Source of the DNA: Mobula hypostoma | Lineage: Eukaryota | Assembly: GCF_963921235.1 (NCBI RefSeq) | Contig: NC_086107.1 | Coordinates: 95,172,001 to 95,232,000, forward strand | Direction: 5' to 3' | Length of the DNA: 60,000 bases | Part shown: positions 15,690 to 30,199 of the stretch, in pieces | Position numbering within the stretch: position 1 is the stretch's first letter | Layout: each line of letters opens with the position of its first letter | The notes under the pieces: model-generated | Database searches by the model: none | The model's input: only the letters and a program-made list of their open reading frames with translations | Told to the model about the DNA's origin: nothing | Made by a program: the position numbers and the translations under genes

Positions 15690-18600
15690 TGACTTATGAA
15701 GGCCAACACACCATGTGCTGCCTTAACCACCTTATCAACCTCCGCCACAGCTTTGAGGGAACTATGGATGTGGACGGCAAGATCCCTCGGTCTCTCCACA
15801 CTGCTAAGGATCCTGCCGTTACCCCTGTATTGTGCCTTCAAATTCGACTTTCCAAATGAATCAGTTTACACTTTTCTGGGTTGAACTCCATCTGCCACTT
15901 CTCAGCCCAAATCTGCATCCTGTCAATGCCCCATTGTAACCCACGACAACCGTCTACACTATCCACAACACCACCAACCTTCATGTCACCTGCAATTTAC
16001 TAACAAAGCCCACTACTTCCTCTTCCAAGTCATTTATAAAAATCACAAAGAACAGCAGTCCCAGAACAGACCCCTGTGGACTACCACTGATCGCTGACTT
16101 CCAGACAGACTATGCTCTATCTTCTACACCCTATCCTCGTTATATGCGGGGGGTACATTCCTCGAAGTTGACGCATAATGTGAATAATTATTAAATGGAG
16201 AAAATTGGGATGCGTTCCAGAGGGCTTCCTAAATATGTTTTATCTGTAATTTTTTCACATTTTCATACCAATACGACACAAAAGCAGTACCACAAGACAA
16301 CATTTGTACTATATTTCATCAATTTAAGGTAATATTCAATATAATAAATCATAGAAAGTTAACATCCGAGGGTGTACAGTACTCAGGTGTGTTCGCTCCG
16401 GGAGATGAGTGGTTGTTGTGGTGTTGGGCAGCTTTACATGGATAAGGTGGATGGTTGTGGTCGTCAGGATCATATCAAGCACAGCAAGGGGTGAAGGAAG
16501 ACTCACAGAATTCTTAGAACCGCCGGCAGCAGAAAGTGTTACCGATTTGAATAAACTGGTGAGGGTTGCTTGCTTGGCAGCATTTTGTTTTAAGTTTGCT
16601 TGTAGGGAAGAAGGGTTGACGGCAGGGAACGACTGAAATGCTGATTCCGTTCTAAACGTGGGTCCATGTCCATCACCATTTGTGCCAAGTATTCCGACTT
16701 CCATCATTCCCTCACCGTTGGTAAACTCCCAGGATTTTCAAAATCGTCTGTTGCAGCATCTGAGAGAGAGTTCGTGGTTAAAAAAAATACACACGCCTTG
16801 AATGTGGATTACACCTTGGTCGAGTGGTTGAATCAGCGATGTTGTGTTAAGCGGCAGGAAACGCACTGTTATGTTAGGATGAATGCTGTCCAACTGTTTA
16901 GGATGGGCTGGCGCATTGTCAAGCAACAAAAGAACTTTAAAGGCAAGACTCTGTTCCCGGCAGTAGTGTCCCAGAGCTGTGTTACCTTCAGCTGATGCCG
17001 TGTTGTTTATAATTTCCAACTTTTTTTCAAATGTTAAAGTGGTTCTCTGCCGTTCAGCTGACGGCCCAGGACATGACATCGGACACTTAGGAGGGATAGT
17101 TGAATATTTCAAGCGCAAAATCACTGCACCATAGGTAAAACCAACAGAAGTTTAAGATGCTCCTCGCATAACTCTTGAGTTTTGGACACAAATAACGAGG
17201 ATAGGGTGTACCACAGTCTGCCTTTTGTGGGCAAGACAAATCCAGATCCACACAGCCAAGTTCACTGGATCCTATTCCTCCTGTCTTTTTGAATCAGCCT
17301 TTTGTGGAGAACCTTATCAAGTGCCTTACTAAAATCCACAATCACCACGTCCACTGCTGTACCTTCATCAATGTACTTTGCCACATCCCCAAAGAATTCA
17401 GGCAGGCTTGTGAGGCATGACTAGCCCCTACAAAGTCATGGTGACTATTCCTAATCAGGCTATGCTTCTCCAAATAGTCATAAATCCTCTCTCTAATAAT
17501 CCGATTCAATAATTTGCCCACCACTGAAGAAAGACTGACTGGTCTATCATTCCCAGGGTTATCTCTCATGGGGCTGGTGAGGACACAAAGATCATTGCCA
17601 AAGGTGCTGCAGGTCTTCCCTCCCTTCCTGTAGTAACTTAGGGTATGTTTTGTATGGCCCCAGGACTTATCTATCCTAATGATTTCTTGAAGTTCCAGCA
17701 TATCCTCTTTCGTAATGTTGACTAAAATACCAACCTGATCTACACTCTCCTGACAAACTTTAAGGTTTCTCTCATTGGTGAATACTGAAGCAAAGTATTC
17801 ATTTAAAAACTTCCTCCTCTGACTCCAGGCACATGTTTCTGGAATAATCCTTTCTGGCTACCTTGTAATTCTCTTGTTTGATCCTTGCTGCTAAGCCTTA
17901 AGTAAACTTCTTTCTTTCTCTTGATAAGATGTTTCATATCCCTTGTCAACCATGGTTCCTTCACCCTTCAAGTTTTTCCCTGCCTCAATGGAACAAACCT
18001 ATCTCGAACACCAAGCAAGAGCTCCCCATTTCCATTGTGCCTTTTCCTGAGTACGTGCGTTCCCAATTTATGCTGCCGTTCCTGCCTATTATCATAATTC
18101 CCCCATCCTAATTAGTGACTTGTGCTGCAAGTTCATCTCCCTTATTCGGTATACTGTGCGCATTCAATCCCATATTCACCCTTTTTAATTTTGTTATCCC
18201 ATACTCAACCTTTTAATTCCTAACTTTGTCTGAGGTCTTACCAACATCTGCCTCCACAACCTCTCCACTAACTCTTCTGGCACTCTGATTCTCATCCCCC
18301 TACAACTCTAGTTTAAACCCCACCATGCAGCATTAACAAACCTTCCTGCTAGGATATTAGCCACCCTCCAGTTCAGGTGCAAACCATCCCTTCTATACAG
18401 GTCCCACCTGGAAGAGAGCCCAATGATCCAAAAATGTTATGCCCTTCCTCCTACACCAAATCCTTGGCCACGGATTAAACTGTATAATCTTCCTTGTTCT
18501 AGTCTCACTAGCACATGGCACGGAGAGTAATCCTGAGATCACAACCCCGGAGGTACTGCCCTTTAATTTAGCACCTAACTCCCTGAACTCCCTTGTAGCC

Positions 18601-21731: not shown

Positions 21732-24716
21732 CATAGAAACATAGAAAATAGGTGCAGGAGTAGGCCATTCGGCCCTTTGAGCCTGCACCGCCATTTATTA
21801 TGATCATGGCTGATCATCCAACTCAGAACCCCGCCCCAGCCTTCCCTCCATACCCCTTGACCCCCGTAGCCACAAGGGCCATATCTAACTCCCTCTTAAA
21901 TATAGCCAATGAACTGGCCTCAACTGTTTCCTGTGGCAGAGAATTCCACAGATTCACCACTCTCTGTGTGAAGAAGTTTTTCCTAATCTCGGTCCTAAAA
22001 GGCTTCCCCTCTATCCTCAAACTGTGGCCCCTCGTTCTGGACTTCCCCAACATCGGGAACAATCTTCCTGCATCTAGCCTGTCCAATCCCTTTAGGATCT
22101 TATACGTTTCAATCAGATCCCCCCTCAATCTTCTAAATTCCAACGAGTACAACCCCAGTTCATCCAGTCTTTCTTCATATGAAAGTCCTGCCATCCCAGG
22201 AATCAATCTGGTGTACTCCCTCTATGGCAAGGATGTCTTTCCTCAGATTAGGAGACCAAAACTGCACACAATACTCCAGGTGTGGTCTCACCAAGGCCTT
22301 GTACAACTGCAGTAGTACCTCCCTGCTCCTGTACTCAAATCCTCTCGCTATAAATGCCAGCATACCATTCGCCTTTTTCACCGCCTGCTGTACCTGCATG
22401 CCCACTTTCAATGACTGGTGTATAATGACACCCAGGTCTCATTGCACCTCCCTTTTACCTAATCGGCCACCATTCAGATAATAATCTGTTTTCCTATTTT
22501 TGCCACCAAAGTGGATAACTTCACATTTATCCACATTAAATTGCATCTGCCATGAATTTGCCCACTCACCCAACCTATCCAAGTCACCCTGCATCCTCCT
22601 CACAGCTAACACTGCCACCCAGCTTCGTGTCATCCGCAAACTTGGAGATGCTGCATTTAATTCCCTCATCCAAGTCATTAATATATATTGTAAACAACTG
22701 GAGTCCCAGCACTGAGCCTTGCGGTACCCCACTAGTCACCGCCTGCCATTCTGAAAAGGTCCCGTTTATTCCCACTCTTTGCTTCCTGTCTGCTAACCAA
22801 TTCTCCACCCACACCAGTACCTTACCCCCAATACCGTGTGCTTTAAGTTTGCACACTAATCTCCTGTGTGGGACCTTGTCAAAAGCCTTTTGAAAATCCA
22901 AATATACCACATCCACTGGTTCTCCCCTATCCACTCTACTAGTTACATCCTCAAAAAATTCTATGAGATTCGTCAGACATGATTTTCCTTTCACAAATCC
23001 ATGCTGACTTTGTCTGATGATTTCACCGCTTTCCAAATGTGCTGTTATCACATCCTTGATAACTGACTCCAGCAGTTTCCCCACCACCGACGTTAGGCTA
23101 ACCGGTCTATAATTCCCCGGTTTCTCTCTCCCTCCTTTTTTAAAAAGTGGGGTTACATTAGCCACCCTCCAATCCTCAGGAACTAGTCCAGAATCTAACG
23201 AGTTTTGTAAAATTATCACTAATGCATCCACTATTTCTTGGGCTTCTTCCTTAAGCACTCTAGGATGCAGACCATCTGGCCCTGGGGATTTAGCTGCCTT
23301 CAATCCCTTCAATTTACCTAACACCACTTCCCTATTAACAAGTATTTCGCTCAGTTCCTCCATCTCACTGGACCCTCTGTCCCCTACTATTTCTGGAAGA
23401 TTATTTATGTCCTCCTTAGTGAAGACATAACCAAAGTAATTATTCAATTGGTCTGCCATGTCCTTGCTCCCCATAATCAATTCACCTGTTTCTGTCTGCA
23501 GGGGACCTACATTTGTCTTTACCAGTCTTTTCCTTTTTACATATCTATAAAAGCTTTTACAGTCTGTTTTTATGTTCCCTGCCAGTTTTCTCTCATAATC
23601 TTTTTTCCCCTTCCTAATTAAGCCCTTTGTCCTCCTCTGCTGAACTCTGAATTTCTCCCAGTCCTCAGGTGAGCCACTTTCTCTGGCTAATTTGTATGCT
23701 TCTTTGGAATTGAGATTATCCCTGATTTCTCTTGTCAGCCACGGGTGCACTACCTTCCTTGATTTATTCTTTTGCCAAACTGGGATGAACAATTGTTGTA
23801 GTTCATCCATGCAACCATTAAATGCTTGCCATTGCATATCCACCGTCAATCCTTTAAGTGTCATTTGCCAGTCTATCTTAGCTAATTCATGTCTCATACC
23901 TTCAAAGTTACCCCTCTTTAAGTTCAGAACCTTTGTTTCTGAATTAACTATGTCACTCTCCATCTTAATGAAGAATTCCACCATATTATGGTCACTCTTA
24001 CCCAAGGGGCCTCTCACGACAAGATCGCTAATTAACCCTTCCTCATTGCTCAAAGCCCAGTCCAGAATAGCCTGCTCGCTAGTTGGTTCCTCGACATGGT
24101 GGTTCAAAAAACCATCTCGCATACATTCCAAGAAATCCTCTTCCTCAGCACCTTTACCAATTTGGTTCACCCAATCTACATGTAGTCACCCATTATAACT
24201 GCTGTTCCTTTATTGCACACATTTCTAATTTCCTGTTTAATACCATCTCCGACCTCACTACTACTGTTAGGTGGCCTGTACACAACTCCCACCAGCGTCT
24301 TCTGCCCCTTAGTGTTACGCAGCTCTACCCATATCGATTCCACATCTTCCCAGCTTATGTCCTTCCTTCTATTGCGTTAATCTCTTCTTTAACCAGCAAC
24401 GCCACCCCACCTCCCCTTCCTTCATGTCTATCCCTCCTGAATATTGAATATCCCTGAACGTTGAGCTCCCATCCCTGGTCACCCTGGAGCCATGTCTCTG
24501 TGATCCCAACTATATCATAATCATTAATAACAATCTGCACTTTCAATTCATCCACCTTATTACGAATGCTCCTTGCATTGACACACAAAGCCTTCAGGCG
24601 CTCTTTTACAACTCTCTTAGCCCTTATACAATTATGTTGAAAAGTGGCCCTTTTTAATACTTGCCCTGGATTTGTCGGCCTGCCACTTTTACTTTTCTCC
24701 TTAGTACTTTTTGCTT
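21732..24716 (-). mobile_element. Young 5'-truncated CR1 LINE (nearly full ORF2 with several small deletions/frameshifts)
   Basis: ORFs 24355..24729, 22584..24170, 22175..22411 and 21823..22206 are near-identical to ORF2 at 26825; (TTTCTATG)n tail at 21732. Confidence 0.95.
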
Positions 24717-24936
24717 CATGGCTGATCATCCAACTCAGAACCCTGCCCCAGCCTTCCCTCCATACCCCCTGATCCCCGTAGCCACAAGGGCCATATCTAA
24801 CTCCCTCTTAAATATAGCCAATGAACTGGCCTCAACTGTTTCCTGTGGCAGAGAATTCCACAGATTCACCACTCTCTGTGTGAAGAAGTTTTTCCTAATC
24901 TCGGTCCTAAAAGGCTTCCCCTTTATCCTCAAACTG
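24717..24936 (-). mobile_element. Extra tail-less 3'-end fragment of the same CR1 family, fused to the 5' end of the previous copy
   Basis: Near-duplicate of ~21805-22025. Confidence 0.85.
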
Positions 24937-25004
24937 TGACCTGTCACTTTCACTTCGTTAGGGTCATGTGGAAAAAGATGACATTTAGGATACAATGTGG
25001 TGTT

Positions 25005-25433
25005 AGAACATGGAAATCTACAGCATATTACAGGCCCTTTAGCCCACAGTCCTGTGCCGACCATGTAACCTACTCTGGAAACTGCCTAGAATTTCCCCAC
25101 TGCACAGCCCTCTGGTTTTCCAAACTCCGGGTACCTATCTAAGAGTGTCTTAAAAGACCCTATTGTATCCGCCTTTACCACCGTCGCTGGCAGTGCATTC
25201 CACACACCCACCACTCTCTGTGTGAAACACTTACCTCTAACATCCCCTTTGTACCTACTTCCAAGCACCTTAAAACTATGCCCCCTCATGTTAGCTATTT
25301 CAGCCCTGGGAAAAAGCCTCTGGCTGTCCACACGATCAATGCCTCTCATCATCTTATACGCCTCTTATCAGGTCACCTCATCATCTGTCACTCCAAGGAG
25401 AAAAGGCTAAGTTCACTCAACCTGTTCTCATAA
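25005..25433 (-). mobile_element. Older CR1 3' fragment, the insertion target of the full-length CR1 (resumes at 29922-29965)
   Basis: ORF 25086..25352 RGHSFKV..FTQRVVGVWNALP; sequence continuity ctcATAA|G..ATAAGgcatactctccaatccaggcaac. Confidence 0.8.
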
Positions 25434-25883
25434 GTGCCGAAAAAGAGATTTTTGAAATTTTCGTTATTTTTTTTCTCCAACGGCTTTCTGAGAGGTGGGA
25501 CTGCGCACGCGTGTGACGTCGGGCAGTGCAGCGCGGCAGATTTAAAAGGGCAGACATCCTGCTTCGGATTTGATTCGAAGAAGGAGTCTGAGAGTCTGAG
25601 TGGGAGTGCCGAAAAAGAGATTTTTGAAATTTTCGTTATTTTTTTTCTCCAACGGCTTTCTGAGAGGCGGGACTGCGCAGGCGTGTGACGTCGGGCAGTG
25701 CAGCGCGGCAGATTTAAAAGGAACAGAGCCTCAGAGAGCGGGCAGCGTAGTTTGCGGGCAGCGGAGTGAGCCGGGAGCAGAGTGAAGACTTAAGGGCTTC
25801 GGCTCACCGGGCTTAGGCGGAAGCGGGCGAGGCGAGGAAGGTTTGACATTCATTTTCTGTTACTATTTGAGGAGAGGGGCATT

Positions 25884-26819
25884 ATGACTGTGAGGGCAGT
25901 TTGCTGTTCTCGGTGTCGGATGTGGGAGGCCCTGGAGTCTCCAAGCCTCCCGGACGTCTACATCTGCGCCAAGTGCATCGAGATGCAGCTCCTAAGGGAC
26001 CGCGTTACGGAACTGGAGCTGCAGCTCGATGACCTTCGTCTGGTCAGGGAGAGCGAGGAGGTGATAGAGAGGAGTGGAAGGCAGGTGGTCACGCCGGGGC
26101 CACGGGAGGCAGACAAGTGGGTCACGGTTAGGAGGGGGAAGGGGAAAAGGAAGGTGATGGGGAGTACCCCGGCGGCTGTGCCCCTTAACAACAGGTACTC
26201 CTGTTTGAGTACTGTTGGGGGGGACAGCTTACCCGGGGGAAGCGACAGTGGCCCTGCCTCCGGCACAGAGTCTGGCCCTGTAGCTCAGAAGGGTAGGGCA
26301 AGGAAGAGGAGGGCAGTTGTGATAGGGGACTCGATAGTAAGGGGGTCAGATAGGCGATTCTGTGGACGCAGTCCAGAGACACGGATGGTAGTTTGCCTCC
26401 CTGGTGCCAGGGTCCGGGATATTTCTGATCATGTCCAAGATATCCTGAAGTGGGAGGGTGAAGAGCCAGAGGTCCTGGTACATATAGGTACCAATGACAT
26501 AGGTAGGAAAAGGGATGAGGTCCTGAAAGAAGAATATAGGGAGCTAGGAAGGGAGTTGAGAAAAAGGACCGCAAAGGTAGTAATCTTGGGATTACTGCCT
26601 GTGCCACGCGACAGTGAGAGTAGGAATGCGATGAGGTGGAGGATAAATGCGTGGCTGAGGGATTGGAGCAGGGGGCAGGGATTCAAGTTTTTGGATCATT
26701 GGGACCTCTTTTGGCGCAGGTGTGACCTGTACAAAAAGGACGGGTTACACTTAAATCCTAGGGGGACCAATATCCTGGCAGGGAGATTAGCGGGGGCTAC
26801 TGAGGTGACTTTAAACTAG
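25884..26819 (+). CDS. CR1 ORF1p: Cys-rich zinc finger, coiled coil and SGNH/GDSL esterase
   Basis: CSRC..CAKC, LELQLDDL heptads, VIGDSIV, HIGTND, DGLHL; 311 aa with no lesion. Confidence 0.9.
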   Translation: MTVRAVCCSRCRMWEALESPSLPDVYICAKCIEMQLLRDRVTELELQLDDLRLVRESEEVIERSGRQVVTPGPREADKWVTVRRGKGKRKVMGSTPAAVPLNNRYSCLSTVGGDSLPGGSDSGPASGTESGPVAQKGRARKRRAVVIGDSIVRGSDRRFCGRSPETRMVVCLPGARVRDISDHVQDILKWEGEEPEVLVHIGTNDIGRKRDEVLKEEYRELGRELRKRTAKVVILGLLPVPRDSESRNAMRWRINAWLRDWSRGQGFKFLDHWDLFWRRCDLYKKDGLHLNPRGTNILAGRLAGATEVTLN

Positions 26820-29800
26820 AATGGTTGGGGGGTGGGAATCAAATTAAAGCGGCAAGGTGTGAGGAGGTTAGTTCACAACAGAGGGATGGGAACCAGTGCA
26901 GAGAGACAGAGGGGTGTAAAGTGAGCGTAGAAGCAAAAAGTACAAAGGGGAAAAGTAAAAGTGGCAGGCCGACAAATCCAGGGCAAGCATTAAAAAGGGC
27001 TAAGAGAGTTGTAAAAGAGCCCCTGAAGGCTTTATGTGTCAATGCAAGGAGCATTCGTAATAAGGTGGATGAATTGAAAGTGCAGATTGTTATTAATGAT
27101 TATGATATAGTTGGAATCACAGAGACATGGCTCCAGGGTGACCAGGGATGGGAGCTCAACGTTCAGGGATATTCAATATTCAGGAGGGATAGACACGAAG
27201 GAAGGGGAGGTGGGGTGGCGTTGCTGGTTAAAAAAGAGATTAACGCAATAGAAAGGAAGGACATAAGCCGGGAAGATGTGGAATCGATATGGGTAGAGCT
27301 GCGTAACACTAAGGGGCAGAAGACGCTGGTGGGAGTTGTGTACAGGCCACCTAACAGTAGTAGTGAGGTCGGAGATGGTATTAAACAGGAAATTAGAAAT
27401 GTGTGCAATAAAGGAACAGCAGTTATAATGGGTGACTTCAATCTACATGTAGACTGGGTGAACCAAATTGGTAAAGGTGCTGAGGAAGAGGATTTCTTGG
27501 AATGTATGCGGGATGGTTTTTTGAACCAACATGTCGAGGAACCGACTAGAGAGCAGGCTATTCTGGACTGGGTTTTGAGCAATGAGGAAGGGTTAATTAG
27601 CGATCTTGTCGTGAGAGGCCCCTTGGGTAAGAGTGACCATAATATGGTGGAATTCTTCATTAACATGGAGAGTGACGTAGTTAATTCAGAAACAAAGGTT
27701 CTGAACTTAAAGAGGGGTAACTTTGAAGGTATGAGACATGAATTAGCTAAGATAGACTGGCAAATGACACTTCAAGGATTGACGGTGGATATGCAATGGC
27801 AGGCATTTAAAGGTTGCATGGATGAACTACAACAATTGTTCATCCCAGTTTGGCAAAAGAATAAATCAAGGAAGGTAGTGCACCCGTGGCTGACAAGAGA
27901 AATTAGGGATAGTATCAATTCCAAAGAAGTAGCATACAAATTAGCCAGAGAAAGTGGCTCACCTGAGGACTGGGAGAAATTCAGAGTTCAGCAGAGGAGG
28001 ACAAAGGGCTTAATTAGGAAGGGGAAAAAAGATTATGAGAGAAAACTGGCAGAGAACATAAAAACGGACTGTAAAAGCTTTTATAGATATGTAAAAAGGA
28101 AAAGACTGATAAAGACAAATGTAGGTCCCCTGCAAACAGAAACAGGTGAATTGATTATGGGGAGCAAGGACATGGCAGACCAATTGAATAATTACTTTGG
28201 TTCTGTCTTCACTAAGGAGGACATAAATAATCTTCCAGAAATAGTAAGGGACAGAGGGTCCAGTGAGATGGAGGAACTGAGCGAAATACATGTTAGTAGG
28301 GAAGTGGTGTTAGGTAAATTGAAGGGATTGAAGGCAGATAAATCCCCAGGGCCAGATGGTCTGCATCCCAGAGTGCTTAAGGAAGTGGCCCAAGAAATAG
28401 TGGATGCATTAGTGATAATTTTACAAAACTCGTTAGATTCTGGACTAGTTCCTGAGGATTGGAGGGTGGCTAATGTAACCCCACTTTTTAAAAAAGGAGG
28501 GAGAGAGAAACCGGGGAATTATAGGCCGGTTAGCCTAACGTCGGTGGTGGGGAAACTGCTGGAGTCAGTTATCAAGGATGTGATAACAGCACATTTGGAA
28601 AGCGGTGAAATGATCGGACAAAGTCAGCATGGATTTGTGAAAGGAAAATCATGTCTGACGAATCTCATAGAATTTTTTGAGGATGTAACTAGTAGAGTGG
28701 ATAGGGGAGAACCAGTGGATGTGGTATATTTGGATTTTCAAAAGGCTTTTGACAAGGTCCCACATAGGAGATTAGTGTGCAAACTTAAAGCACACGGTAT
28801 TGGGGGTAAGGTATTGGTGTGGGTGGAGAATTGGTTAGCAGACAGGAAGCAAAGAGTGGGAATAAACGGGACCTTTTCAGAATGGCAGGCGGTGACTAGT
28901 GGGGTACCGCAAGGCTCAGTGCTGGGACCCCAGTTGTTTACAATATATATTAATGACTTGGATGAGGGAATTAAATGCAGCATCTCCAAGTTTGCGGATG
29001 ACACGAAGCTGGGTGGCAGTGTTAGCAGTGAGGAGGATGCTAAGAGGATGCAGGGTGACTTGGATAGGTTGGGTGAGTGGGCAAACTCATGGCAGATGCA
29101 ATTTAATGTGGATAAATGTGAAGTTATCCACTTTGGTGGCAAAAATAGGAAAACAGATTATTATCTGAATGGTGGCCGATTAGGAAAAGGGGAGGTGCAA
29201 CGAGACCTGGGTGTCATTATACACCAGTCATTGAAAGTGGGCATGCAGGTACAGCAGGCGGTGAAAAAGGCGAACGGTATGCTGGCATTTATAGCGAGAG
29301 GATTCGAGTACAGGAGCAGGGAGGTACTACTGCAGTTGTACAAGGCCTTGGTGAGACCACACCTGGAGTATTGTGTGCATTTTTTGGTCCCCTAATCTGA
29401 GGAAAGACATCTTTGCCATAGAGGGAGTACAAAGAAGGTTCACCAGATTGATTCCTGGGATGGCAGGTCTTTCATATGAAGAAAGACTGGATGAACTGGG
29501 CTTGTACTCGTTGGAATTTAGAAGATTGAGGGGGGATCTGATTGAAACGTATAAGATCCTAAAGGGATTGGACAGGCTAGATGCGGGAAGATTGTTCCCG
29601 ATGTTGGGGAGGTCTAGAACGAGGGGTCACAGTTTGAGGATAGAGGGGAAGCCTTTTAGGACCGAGGTTAGGAAAAACTTCTTCACACAGAGAGTGGTGA
29701 ATCTGTGGAATTCTCTGCCACAGCAAACTGTTGAGGCCAGTTCATTAGCTATGTTTAAAAGGAAGTTAGATATGGCCCTTGTGGCTACAGGGGTCAGGGG

Positions 29801-29825
29801 GTATGGAGGGAAGGCTGGGTTCTGA
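26810..29825 (+). CDS. CR1 ORF2p: APE endonuclease plus reverse transcriptase; no AUG start; one frameshift lesion near 29380
   Basis: [49 protein letters not shown]. The C-terminus continues in ORF 29373..29825. Confidence 0.9.
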
Positions 29826-30199
29826 GTTGGATGATCAGCCATGATCATAATAAATGGCGGTGCAGGCTCGAAGGGCCGAATGGCCTACTCCTGCACCTAT
29901 TTTCTATGTTTCTATGTTTCTATAAGGCATACTCTCCAATCCAGGCAACGTCCTAGTAAATCTCTGCAATGGTATTCCGAACCCTGATGTCCAAGGAATG
30001 TCCTGTAGTCGAGATCACTCTGTGCAGTGATGTGACGATGGAATTTTTAAAGGTTCAAAAGGAAATGGGATTGACAGAGAATTTAGTGGGTGTGTCAGAG
30101 TGAAGGGAGATTTTTGTTTCAGTACAGAATATCACAAGGGCACCTGAGAAAAGTTTTTGCCTTTTTTTGTCACGTTTACTGAAATGATGAAAATATTTT

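Follow-up and report, generated by a model that had tools for sequence, protein, structure and literature searches.

Background

By what route do ribosomes reach the second open reading frame (ORF2) of a LINE (long interspersed nuclear element) that has no AUG codon in front of its first enzymatic motifs? The question is raised by a 4.5-kb non-LTR retrotransposon (a retrotransposon without long terminal repeats), assigned here to the CR1 clade, in a stretch of 60,000 nucleotides (nt) from Mobula hypostoma (contig NC_086107.1 of assembly GCF_963921235.1, positions 95,172,001-95,232,000 of the forward strand; the genome comprises 3.48 Gb). This whole stretch is called the window below, and all coordinates are positions in it. 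ORF1 of the element ends with the heptamer T_TTA_AAC directly followed by a stop codon, and the -1 frame holds ORF2, which codes for an endonuclease and a reverse transcriptase. The sequence evidence presented here makes it probable that a conserved programmed -1 frameshift yields a fusion of the two proteins (ORF1p-ORF2p) in this CR1 family.

In most vertebrates the principal group of LINEs is CR1, and CR1 elements with an esterase-type ORF1 are the dominant transposons in birds, reptiles and many fishes. How bicistronic LINEs get their ORF2 translated has been a puzzle for a long time. The mechanism is called "not clear" in the available part of PMC3708506, and the available part of a review on frameshifting describes the L1 mechanism as an unknown, novel type of initiation (PMC5009743). 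The same part of the review features non-LTR elements only through HeT-A, TART and L1. LINE frameshifting is not new in kind, since ORF2 expression in the Dictyostelium elements TRE5-A and TRE3-A depends on a -1 frameshift, according to the part of PMC5911963 at hand. A conserved canonical slip site at each ORF1 end would give CR1 a logic resembling that of retroviral Gag-Pol.

Junction between ORF1 and ORF2

The last codons of ORF1 are ACT (26808-26810), TTA (26811-26813), AAC (26814-26816) and TAG (26817-26819). Thus T_TTA_AAC at 26810-26816 is in the X_XXY_YYZ register, as an initial annotation of this DNA had claimed. Its further description of the junction was also accurate. ORF2 is in the -1 frame relative to ORF1 and is open from 26804, immediately behind a TGA at 26801-26803; the heptamer therefore lies within the 16-nt overlap that extends from 26804 to the ORF1 stop. 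The first in-frame AUG of ORF2 is found at 27428, 206 codons past the TTT codon and behind the endonuclease motifs NARS, ETW and YRPP, while an ATG at 26821 belongs to the third frame. A G-rich tract, GGTTGGGGGGTGGG, starts 6 nt past the heptamer.

The open frame switches exactly at the heptamer. In the window element the -1 frame contains five stops in the 80 codons upstream of the heptamer and is free of stops over the 77 that follow it; in the 0 frame there are no stops upstream and six downstream. At the related locus L080 there are eight stops in the 80 upstream codons of the -1 frame and none in the 72 downstream codons. The heptamer at the end of ORF1 is the sole in-register canonical heptamer among its 312 codons. 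The 864 codons of the ORF2 frame include two, one of them being a T run at the frame break discussed below. Chance is an unlikely source of the junction signal.

The element belongs to a young, high-copy and recently active family. In all 40 scored matches, out of 922 candidates in the same genome, the 401 nt around the junction are about 100% identical. A 71-nt junction segment that includes the heptamer is identical in all 30 fetched young copies, the -1 frame stays open for at least 563 codons, up to the fetched end, in 25 of the 30, and an ORF1 of 311 amino acids (aa) with the same N-terminus is present in 14. Recent amplification requires a working endonuclease, and an ORF2p begun at the first AUG would miss the N-terminal motifs of this enzyme. 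As near-identical copies are uninformative on selection, we sought diverged lineages.

Conservation in diverged CR1 lineages

Junction DNA was obtained from five lineages, four of them in one genome (Table 1).

Table 1. ORF1/ORF2 junctions of five CR1 lineages, as read in the named copies. ORF1 identity is given relative to ORF1 of the window element.
Lineage	ORF1 identity	End of ORF1	Distance from heptamer to G-tract	G-tract
Window element		ACT TTA AAC TAG	10 nt	GGGGGGTGGG
L074-L093, nearest to a stingray protein	60%	GGT TTA AAC TAA	10 nt	GGGGGATGGG
Decayed copy in the window, 18291-18317 (-)	about 50%	GGT TTA AAC TAG	10 nt	GGGGGATGAG
L031-L060, old decayed subfamily	36%	GCT TTA AAC TAA	9 nt	GGGGGGTGGG
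L063, metagenome locus nearest to squamate-type proteins	29%	GCT TTA AAC TAA	10 nt	GGGGGTTAGGG

In all five lineages Leu is encoded by TTA, Asn by AAC, the preceding codon ends in T, and a stop codon (TAA or TAG) stands right after the heptamer. Synonymous sites are long saturated at 29-60% protein identity. Within the element TTA accounts for 19% of Leu codons, 37% of Asn codons are AAC, and 23% of all codons are NNT; were the amino acids alone conserved, about 1.6% of lineages should carry the exact heptamer, and it is seen in five out of five. Shared ancestry keeps this figure from being a strict, fully independent probability. When four lineages are aligned with MAFFT, a single long block, TTTAAACTA, is invariant, and GGGGG.T.GG follows it about 10 nt past the heptamer. 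Conservation extends neither to the last 25 nt of ORF1 nor to the stretch past the G-tract. The heptamer, the stop codon and the G-tract are conserved as nucleotides.

Among the 20 L074-L093 loci, 19 carry the exact heptamer and 16 have the endonuclease in the -1 frame. In L031-L060 the exact heptamer is retained in 18 of 30 loci; this number is uninformative on selection because the copies decay neutrally. The decayed copy at 18291-18317 (-) has a TAG five codons on in the -1 frame, as expected of decay.

Sequencing-run contigs of other organisms, the kind of which is uncertain, were also compared. Some of the listed differences from the window element fall at 26789-26803 and 26843-26854 and none at 26804-26842; a further 77 differences lie beyond those listed. 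Loose contig ends from other organisms supplied two more ORF1 tails, which run into ...AGTTTAAA and ...GCTTTAAA. A metagenome scan gave four loci, of which L063 alone reaches the junction. The nine loci from a scan of genome contigs all encode GDSL hydrolases of the bacterial type and show no match to ORF2, and a scan of viral contigs for related loci gave none. Searches of the M. hypostoma genome with the proteins P0104 (distant, ena-type), P0082 (turtle-type) and P0179 (QGN-type) revealed no subfamily beyond those already seen.

C-termini of ORF1 proteins

We examined 252 ORF1p homologues and kept the 155, ranging from rays to birds, in which a DGxHL-type motif within the last 45 residues indicated a complete C-terminal region; the other 97 were dropped as fragments or fused gene models. 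A C-terminal Leu-Asn (LN) is found in 108 of the 155 proteins, and a C-terminal Asn in 122. The residue preceding LN is of 13 kinds. Lys, Glu, Gln, Met and Trp, which have no U-ending codon, occupy this position in one of the 108 proteins (one of 91 distinct tails) and the next two positions upstream in 40 and 46 of the 108. Scarcity of these five residues just before LN is predicted by the need for U at the first position of the heptamer.

Six distant homologues end in QGN. This end fits an alternative canonical site, G_GGA_AAC (CAG GGA AAC), with a preceding codon that ends in G. The correspondence between QGN and G_GGA_AAC stays a reading at the protein level, because the genome search with a QGN-type protein gave only known subfamilies.

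One stingray gene model, P0036 (425 aa), runs from ORF1 through ...LN directly into the endonuclease motifs. It is either a bridge over the frameshift introduced by gene prediction or a natural in-frame fusion.

Linker and downstream sequence

Between the heptamer and the endonuclease lies a linker of 77 codons with neither a stop nor an AUG; the other two frames have six and seven stops over the same distance. An in-frame, open insertion of 27 nt behind 26994 (26994/26995) is present in the truncated copy of the family in the window and in contigs of other organisms. Differences in the linker between the window element and these contigs are not enriched at third codon positions. What seems to be under constraint in the linker is thus the open frame and not the particular sequence, as would be the case for a flexible tether.

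In the downstream RNA, a two-layer G-quadruplex starting 6 nt past the heptamer is predicted by ViennaRNA with the G-quadruplex option in two of four lineages. In L031-L060 the G-run is one base off the ORF2 codon phase in comparison with the other lineages, which indicates that the tract is conserved as nucleotides and not as a peptide. An Rfam scan of the element found no family, just two chance-level matches to long non-coding RNAs. The G-tract is the sole candidate for a stimulator and could possibly act as a quadruplex or through a bound protein.

Proposed mechanism and alternative explanations

That ribosomes slip at the heptamer, and how often they would do so, is inferred from the sequence. 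Most ribosomes on ORF1 would terminate at UAG and release ORF1p. A fraction of them would slip back one base. This could be a tandem slip of tRNA-Leu and tRNA-Asn, with UUA and AAC of U_UUA_AAC occupying the P and A sites, or it could happen with the neighbouring stop codon still unread in the A site. The slipped ribosomes would read CUA and go on through the 77-codon linker into the endonuclease and the reverse transcriptase, with the G-tract 6-10 nt downstream as a putative stimulator. The product would be an ORF1p-ORF2p fusion made in a low fixed proportion to ORF1p, like retroviral Gag-Pol. A programmed -1 frameshift, as proposed in the initial annotation, is supported by the recurring relation of the heptamer, the stop and the -1 frame, by the codon choice, by the LN ends of ORF1p and by the open linker that lacks AUG.

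Several observations weigh against this reading. A downstream hairpin or pseudoknot is predicted no better than in shuffled sequences (z = +0.88 for the window, -0.8 to +1.9 in four lineages), and the predicted quadruplex is limited to two of four lineages and to two layers. Simple tandem slippage does not require a strictly adjacent stop. An in-frame AUG precedes the endonuclease in three of the four other lineages (the decayed 18.3-kb copy cannot be judged), so that reinitiation could take place there. In four of the 20 L074-L093 loci the endonuclease match lies outside the -1 frame, presumably as a result of indels in single copies. The DNA evidence comprises five lineages, related by descent, with four from one genome. 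Finally, the ORF2 of the window copy is itself broken near 29380: the frame ends at 29395, and the coding sequence resumes in another frame. Compared with two other copies, a T run near 29379-29386 differs in length by one base (two of three fetched stretches contained the anchor); in the window copy this T run also yields a chance in-register TTTTTTG. The fusion of about 1313 aa that had been predicted for this element is therefore a property of the family and not of the window copy.

Of the alternatives, termination-reinitiation or an L1-like AUG-independent start survives best. The ribosome would restart in the -1 frame near UAG or UAA, at an AUG or a non-AUG codon, and the TTTAAAC-stop module with the G-tract would be the restart signal. 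A stop always right behind the heptamer fits a termination-dependent event. The initiation of human L1 ORF2 is described as AUG-independent in the available part of PMC5009743, and at L063 an in-frame ATG overlaps the stop (UAAUG), which is the layout reported for SART1 in the available part of PMC3708506. An AUG also occurs 38 codons on at L080 and about 15 codons on in L031-L060, where it is kept in most copies. In the window family, however, the ORF2 frame has no AUG that overlaps the stop or lies within a few nt of it, the first one being 206 codons on, and near-cognate codons past the stop are unconserved between lineages. Reinitiation also leaves unexplained why the 38 codons before the AUG of L080 are open, why the Leu and Asn codons are the slippery ones and why the preceding codon ends in U. 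The conserved G-tract is found downstream of the stop; in caliciviruses the restart motif is upstream. We regard a restart of this kind as unlikely.

Rather improbable is the explanation that the LN end and the nearby nucleotides are kept for some other reason, such as a function of the ORF1p C-terminus or the packaging or binding of RNA, with ORF2 expressed in trans or from a spliced or deleted RNA. CR1 subfamilies with an AUG-bearing ORF2 do coexist in the genome. Furthermore, 26722-26804 is missing from one contig of run X11; these 83 nt have GT..AG ends, and their loss would bring ORF1 into the ORF2 frame just before the heptamer. But the skip occurs in one of 1777 records of this run and is absent from the other three runs, the shorter side of the contig has 23 letters, the 5-nt repeat GTGAC is found at both ends of the skipped segment, and the acceptor has no pyrimidine tract; a deletion variant, an error of assembly or splicing could each account for the skip. 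Constraint at the protein level leaves the choice of TTA, AAC and NNT codons and the QGN variant unexplained, and the ORF2 frame is open from the heptamer on.

That an ordinary heptamer stands by chance at the ORF1 end of a dead element is scarcely credible: the bare word TTTAAAC indeed shows no enrichment in the window (it occurs 12 times, with 6.95 expected, and 7 of 100 shuffles reach 12), but five lineages whose ORF1 identity is 29-60% have this site at an identical location, the LN end recurs across most of the ORF1p homologues, and the family is young, with many copies that have open frames.

Comparison with known systems

The coronavirus frameshift site is composed of U_UUA_AAC plus a pseudoknot. 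The CR1 junction has the identical heptamer in the same register, and in coronavirus ORF1a/1b a -1 shift likewise leads into the polymerase frame. Coronaviruses and retroviral gag-pol maintain a fixed low ratio of the polymerase fusion to the structural protein, as proposed here. CR1 differs from both in that the zero-frame stop abuts the heptamer and that a linear conserved G-tract is found with no predicted hairpin or pseudoknot. It further differs from retroviral gag-pol in being a non-LTR retrotransposon whose ORF1p is of the esterase type and not Gag. In barley yellow dwarf virus (a luteovirus) and red clover necrotic mosaic virus (a dianthovirus) the zero-frame stop immediately adjoins the slippery heptamer, as in CR1; unlike the CR1 tract, the stimulators of these viruses are structured or long-range. 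The arterivirus nsp2TF frameshift is stimulated by proteins on a linear C-rich motif about 10 nt downstream. The CR1 tract is similarly linear, unstructured, conserved and about 10 nt 3' of the slip site, whereas it is G-rich and the CR1 shift has the -1 direction only; the resemblance may serve as a lead. The slip site of PEG10 is G_GGA_AAC, which would match the QGN-ending ORF1 proteins, known here from protein sequences. The coronavirus heptamer is also discussed in the available part of the frameshifting review PMC5009743.

Among LINEs, TRE5-A and TRE3-A have an endonuclease of the apurinic/apyrimidinic (AP) type and use a -1 frameshift for ORF2, but they belong to another LINE clade and another host, and we liken them to CR1 by description only. 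SART1 of Bombyx and human L1 share with CR1 a bicistronic RNA with low-level ORF2 expression from the same RNA, and UAAUG occurs in L063 as well. They differ from the window family in that the latter lacks an AUG for 206 codons; a conserved slippery heptamer is not needed by the models for SART1 and L1.

A full-text literature search found no paper that describes frameshifting or a slippery site where ORF1 of CR1 meets ORF2; earlier CR1 papers lay outside this search, so a prior remark is possible. The available parts of a CR1 survey of 2026 (PMC13343379) and of PMC4120745 make no mention of a frameshift, an overlap, a slippery site or a stop codon, and those of PMC3905857, PMC4255032, PMC11835228, PMC1947958 and PMC5006619 have nothing relevant to CR1 frameshifting. 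What appears to be new here is the breadth: the heptamer-stop-G-tract module at the end of esterase-type ORF1 looks general to vertebrate CR1. A stronger claim is that all vertebrate esterase-type CR1s have made their reverse transcriptase solely as a -1 frameshift fusion, kept for more than 400 million years, with a linear G-tract about 10 nt downstream (a quadruplex or a protein site, possibly for ORF1p) and not a pseudoknot as the stimulator. We consider this claim tentative and lean against it.

Under this stronger claim the element could set its own ORF1p:ORF2p ratio and cis-preference would be built in. If a conserved slip site ends every CR1 ORF1, the active enzyme is predicted to be the ORF1p-ORF2p fusion. 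In annotation, ORF2 should then be joined to ORF1 at TTTAAAC instead of being started at the first AUG. The G-tract would be a possible example of an unstructured or quadruplex stimulator.

Structure of the element and its surroundings

The features of the element and its relatives in the window are listed in Table 2.

Table 2. Coordinates of the CR1 element and of related sequences in the window.
Feature	Position	Strand	Remarks
Non-LTR retrotransposon	about 25434 to 29924	+	4.5 kb
5' untranslated region (UTR)	25434..25883	+	holds a duplicated stretch of about 170 nt
ORF1	25884..26819	+	311 aa + TAG; Cys-rich N-terminal motifs and SGNH/GDSL esterase domain
Slippery heptamer T_TTA_AAC	26810..26816	+	in ORF1 register
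ORF1 stop TAG	26817..26819	+	abuts the heptamer
G-rich tract GGTTGGGGGGTGGG	26823..26836	+	candidate stimulator: two-layer G-quadruplex or protein-binding site
ORF2 frame	26804..29395	+	-1 relative to ORF1, 863 codons: 77-codon AUG-less linker, AP endonuclease, reverse transcriptase
C-terminal part of ORF2	29355..29825	+	out of frame in the window copy
3' end of the element	29899..29924	+	about three copies of the 8-nt unit TTTCTATG; poly-A absent
5'-truncated copy of the same family	24355..24807	-	27-nt in-frame insertion in the linker
Junction of ORF1 with ORF2 in a second CR1 copy, decayed and of a different lineage	18291..18317	-	GGT TTA AAC TAG, 7 nt, GGGGGATGAG

The esterase domain of ORF1 matches PF13472 (E 4.4e-16). 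ORF2 matches PF03372 (E 2.5e-12), PF14529 and PF00078 (E 8.8e-34), that is, an AP endonuclease followed by a reverse transcriptase. The database protein closest to ORF1p is named by NCBI from devil ray and is 98% identical; other homologues found by the database search come from rays, sharks, coelacanth, frogs, turtles, squamates, birds and alligator. The element ends in short (8-nt) direct repeats and not in poly-A, which we take to be a hallmark of CR1. Judged from its ORF1 homologues and its 3' tail, it is a CR1-clade LINE with an esterase-type ORF1. The esterase type is the sole ORF1 type found in vertebrate CR1 and L2, according to the available part of PMC13343379.

One homologue with 60% identity to ORF1p, P0021, comes from a 4-kb contig that NCBI assigns to Pseudomonas aeruginosa, where it is entered as an SGNH/GDSL hydrolase; in all likelihood this is CR1 DNA of a vertebrate that contaminates a bacterial assembly.

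The 5' UTR contains a direct duplication (within 25437-25790), in which a string of about 60 nt begins at 25437 and again at 25610. Tandem Repeats Finder reported no array in the element, the 5' UTR duplication included. In the CR1 survey, 5' repeat subunits are mentioned in a figure legend, solely for elements without ORF1 (PMC13343379, available part). Right upstream of the element, at 24735-25364 on the reverse strand, at least two more CR1 copies are represented by C-terminal pieces of ORF2, stacked into a nest of CR1 insertions.

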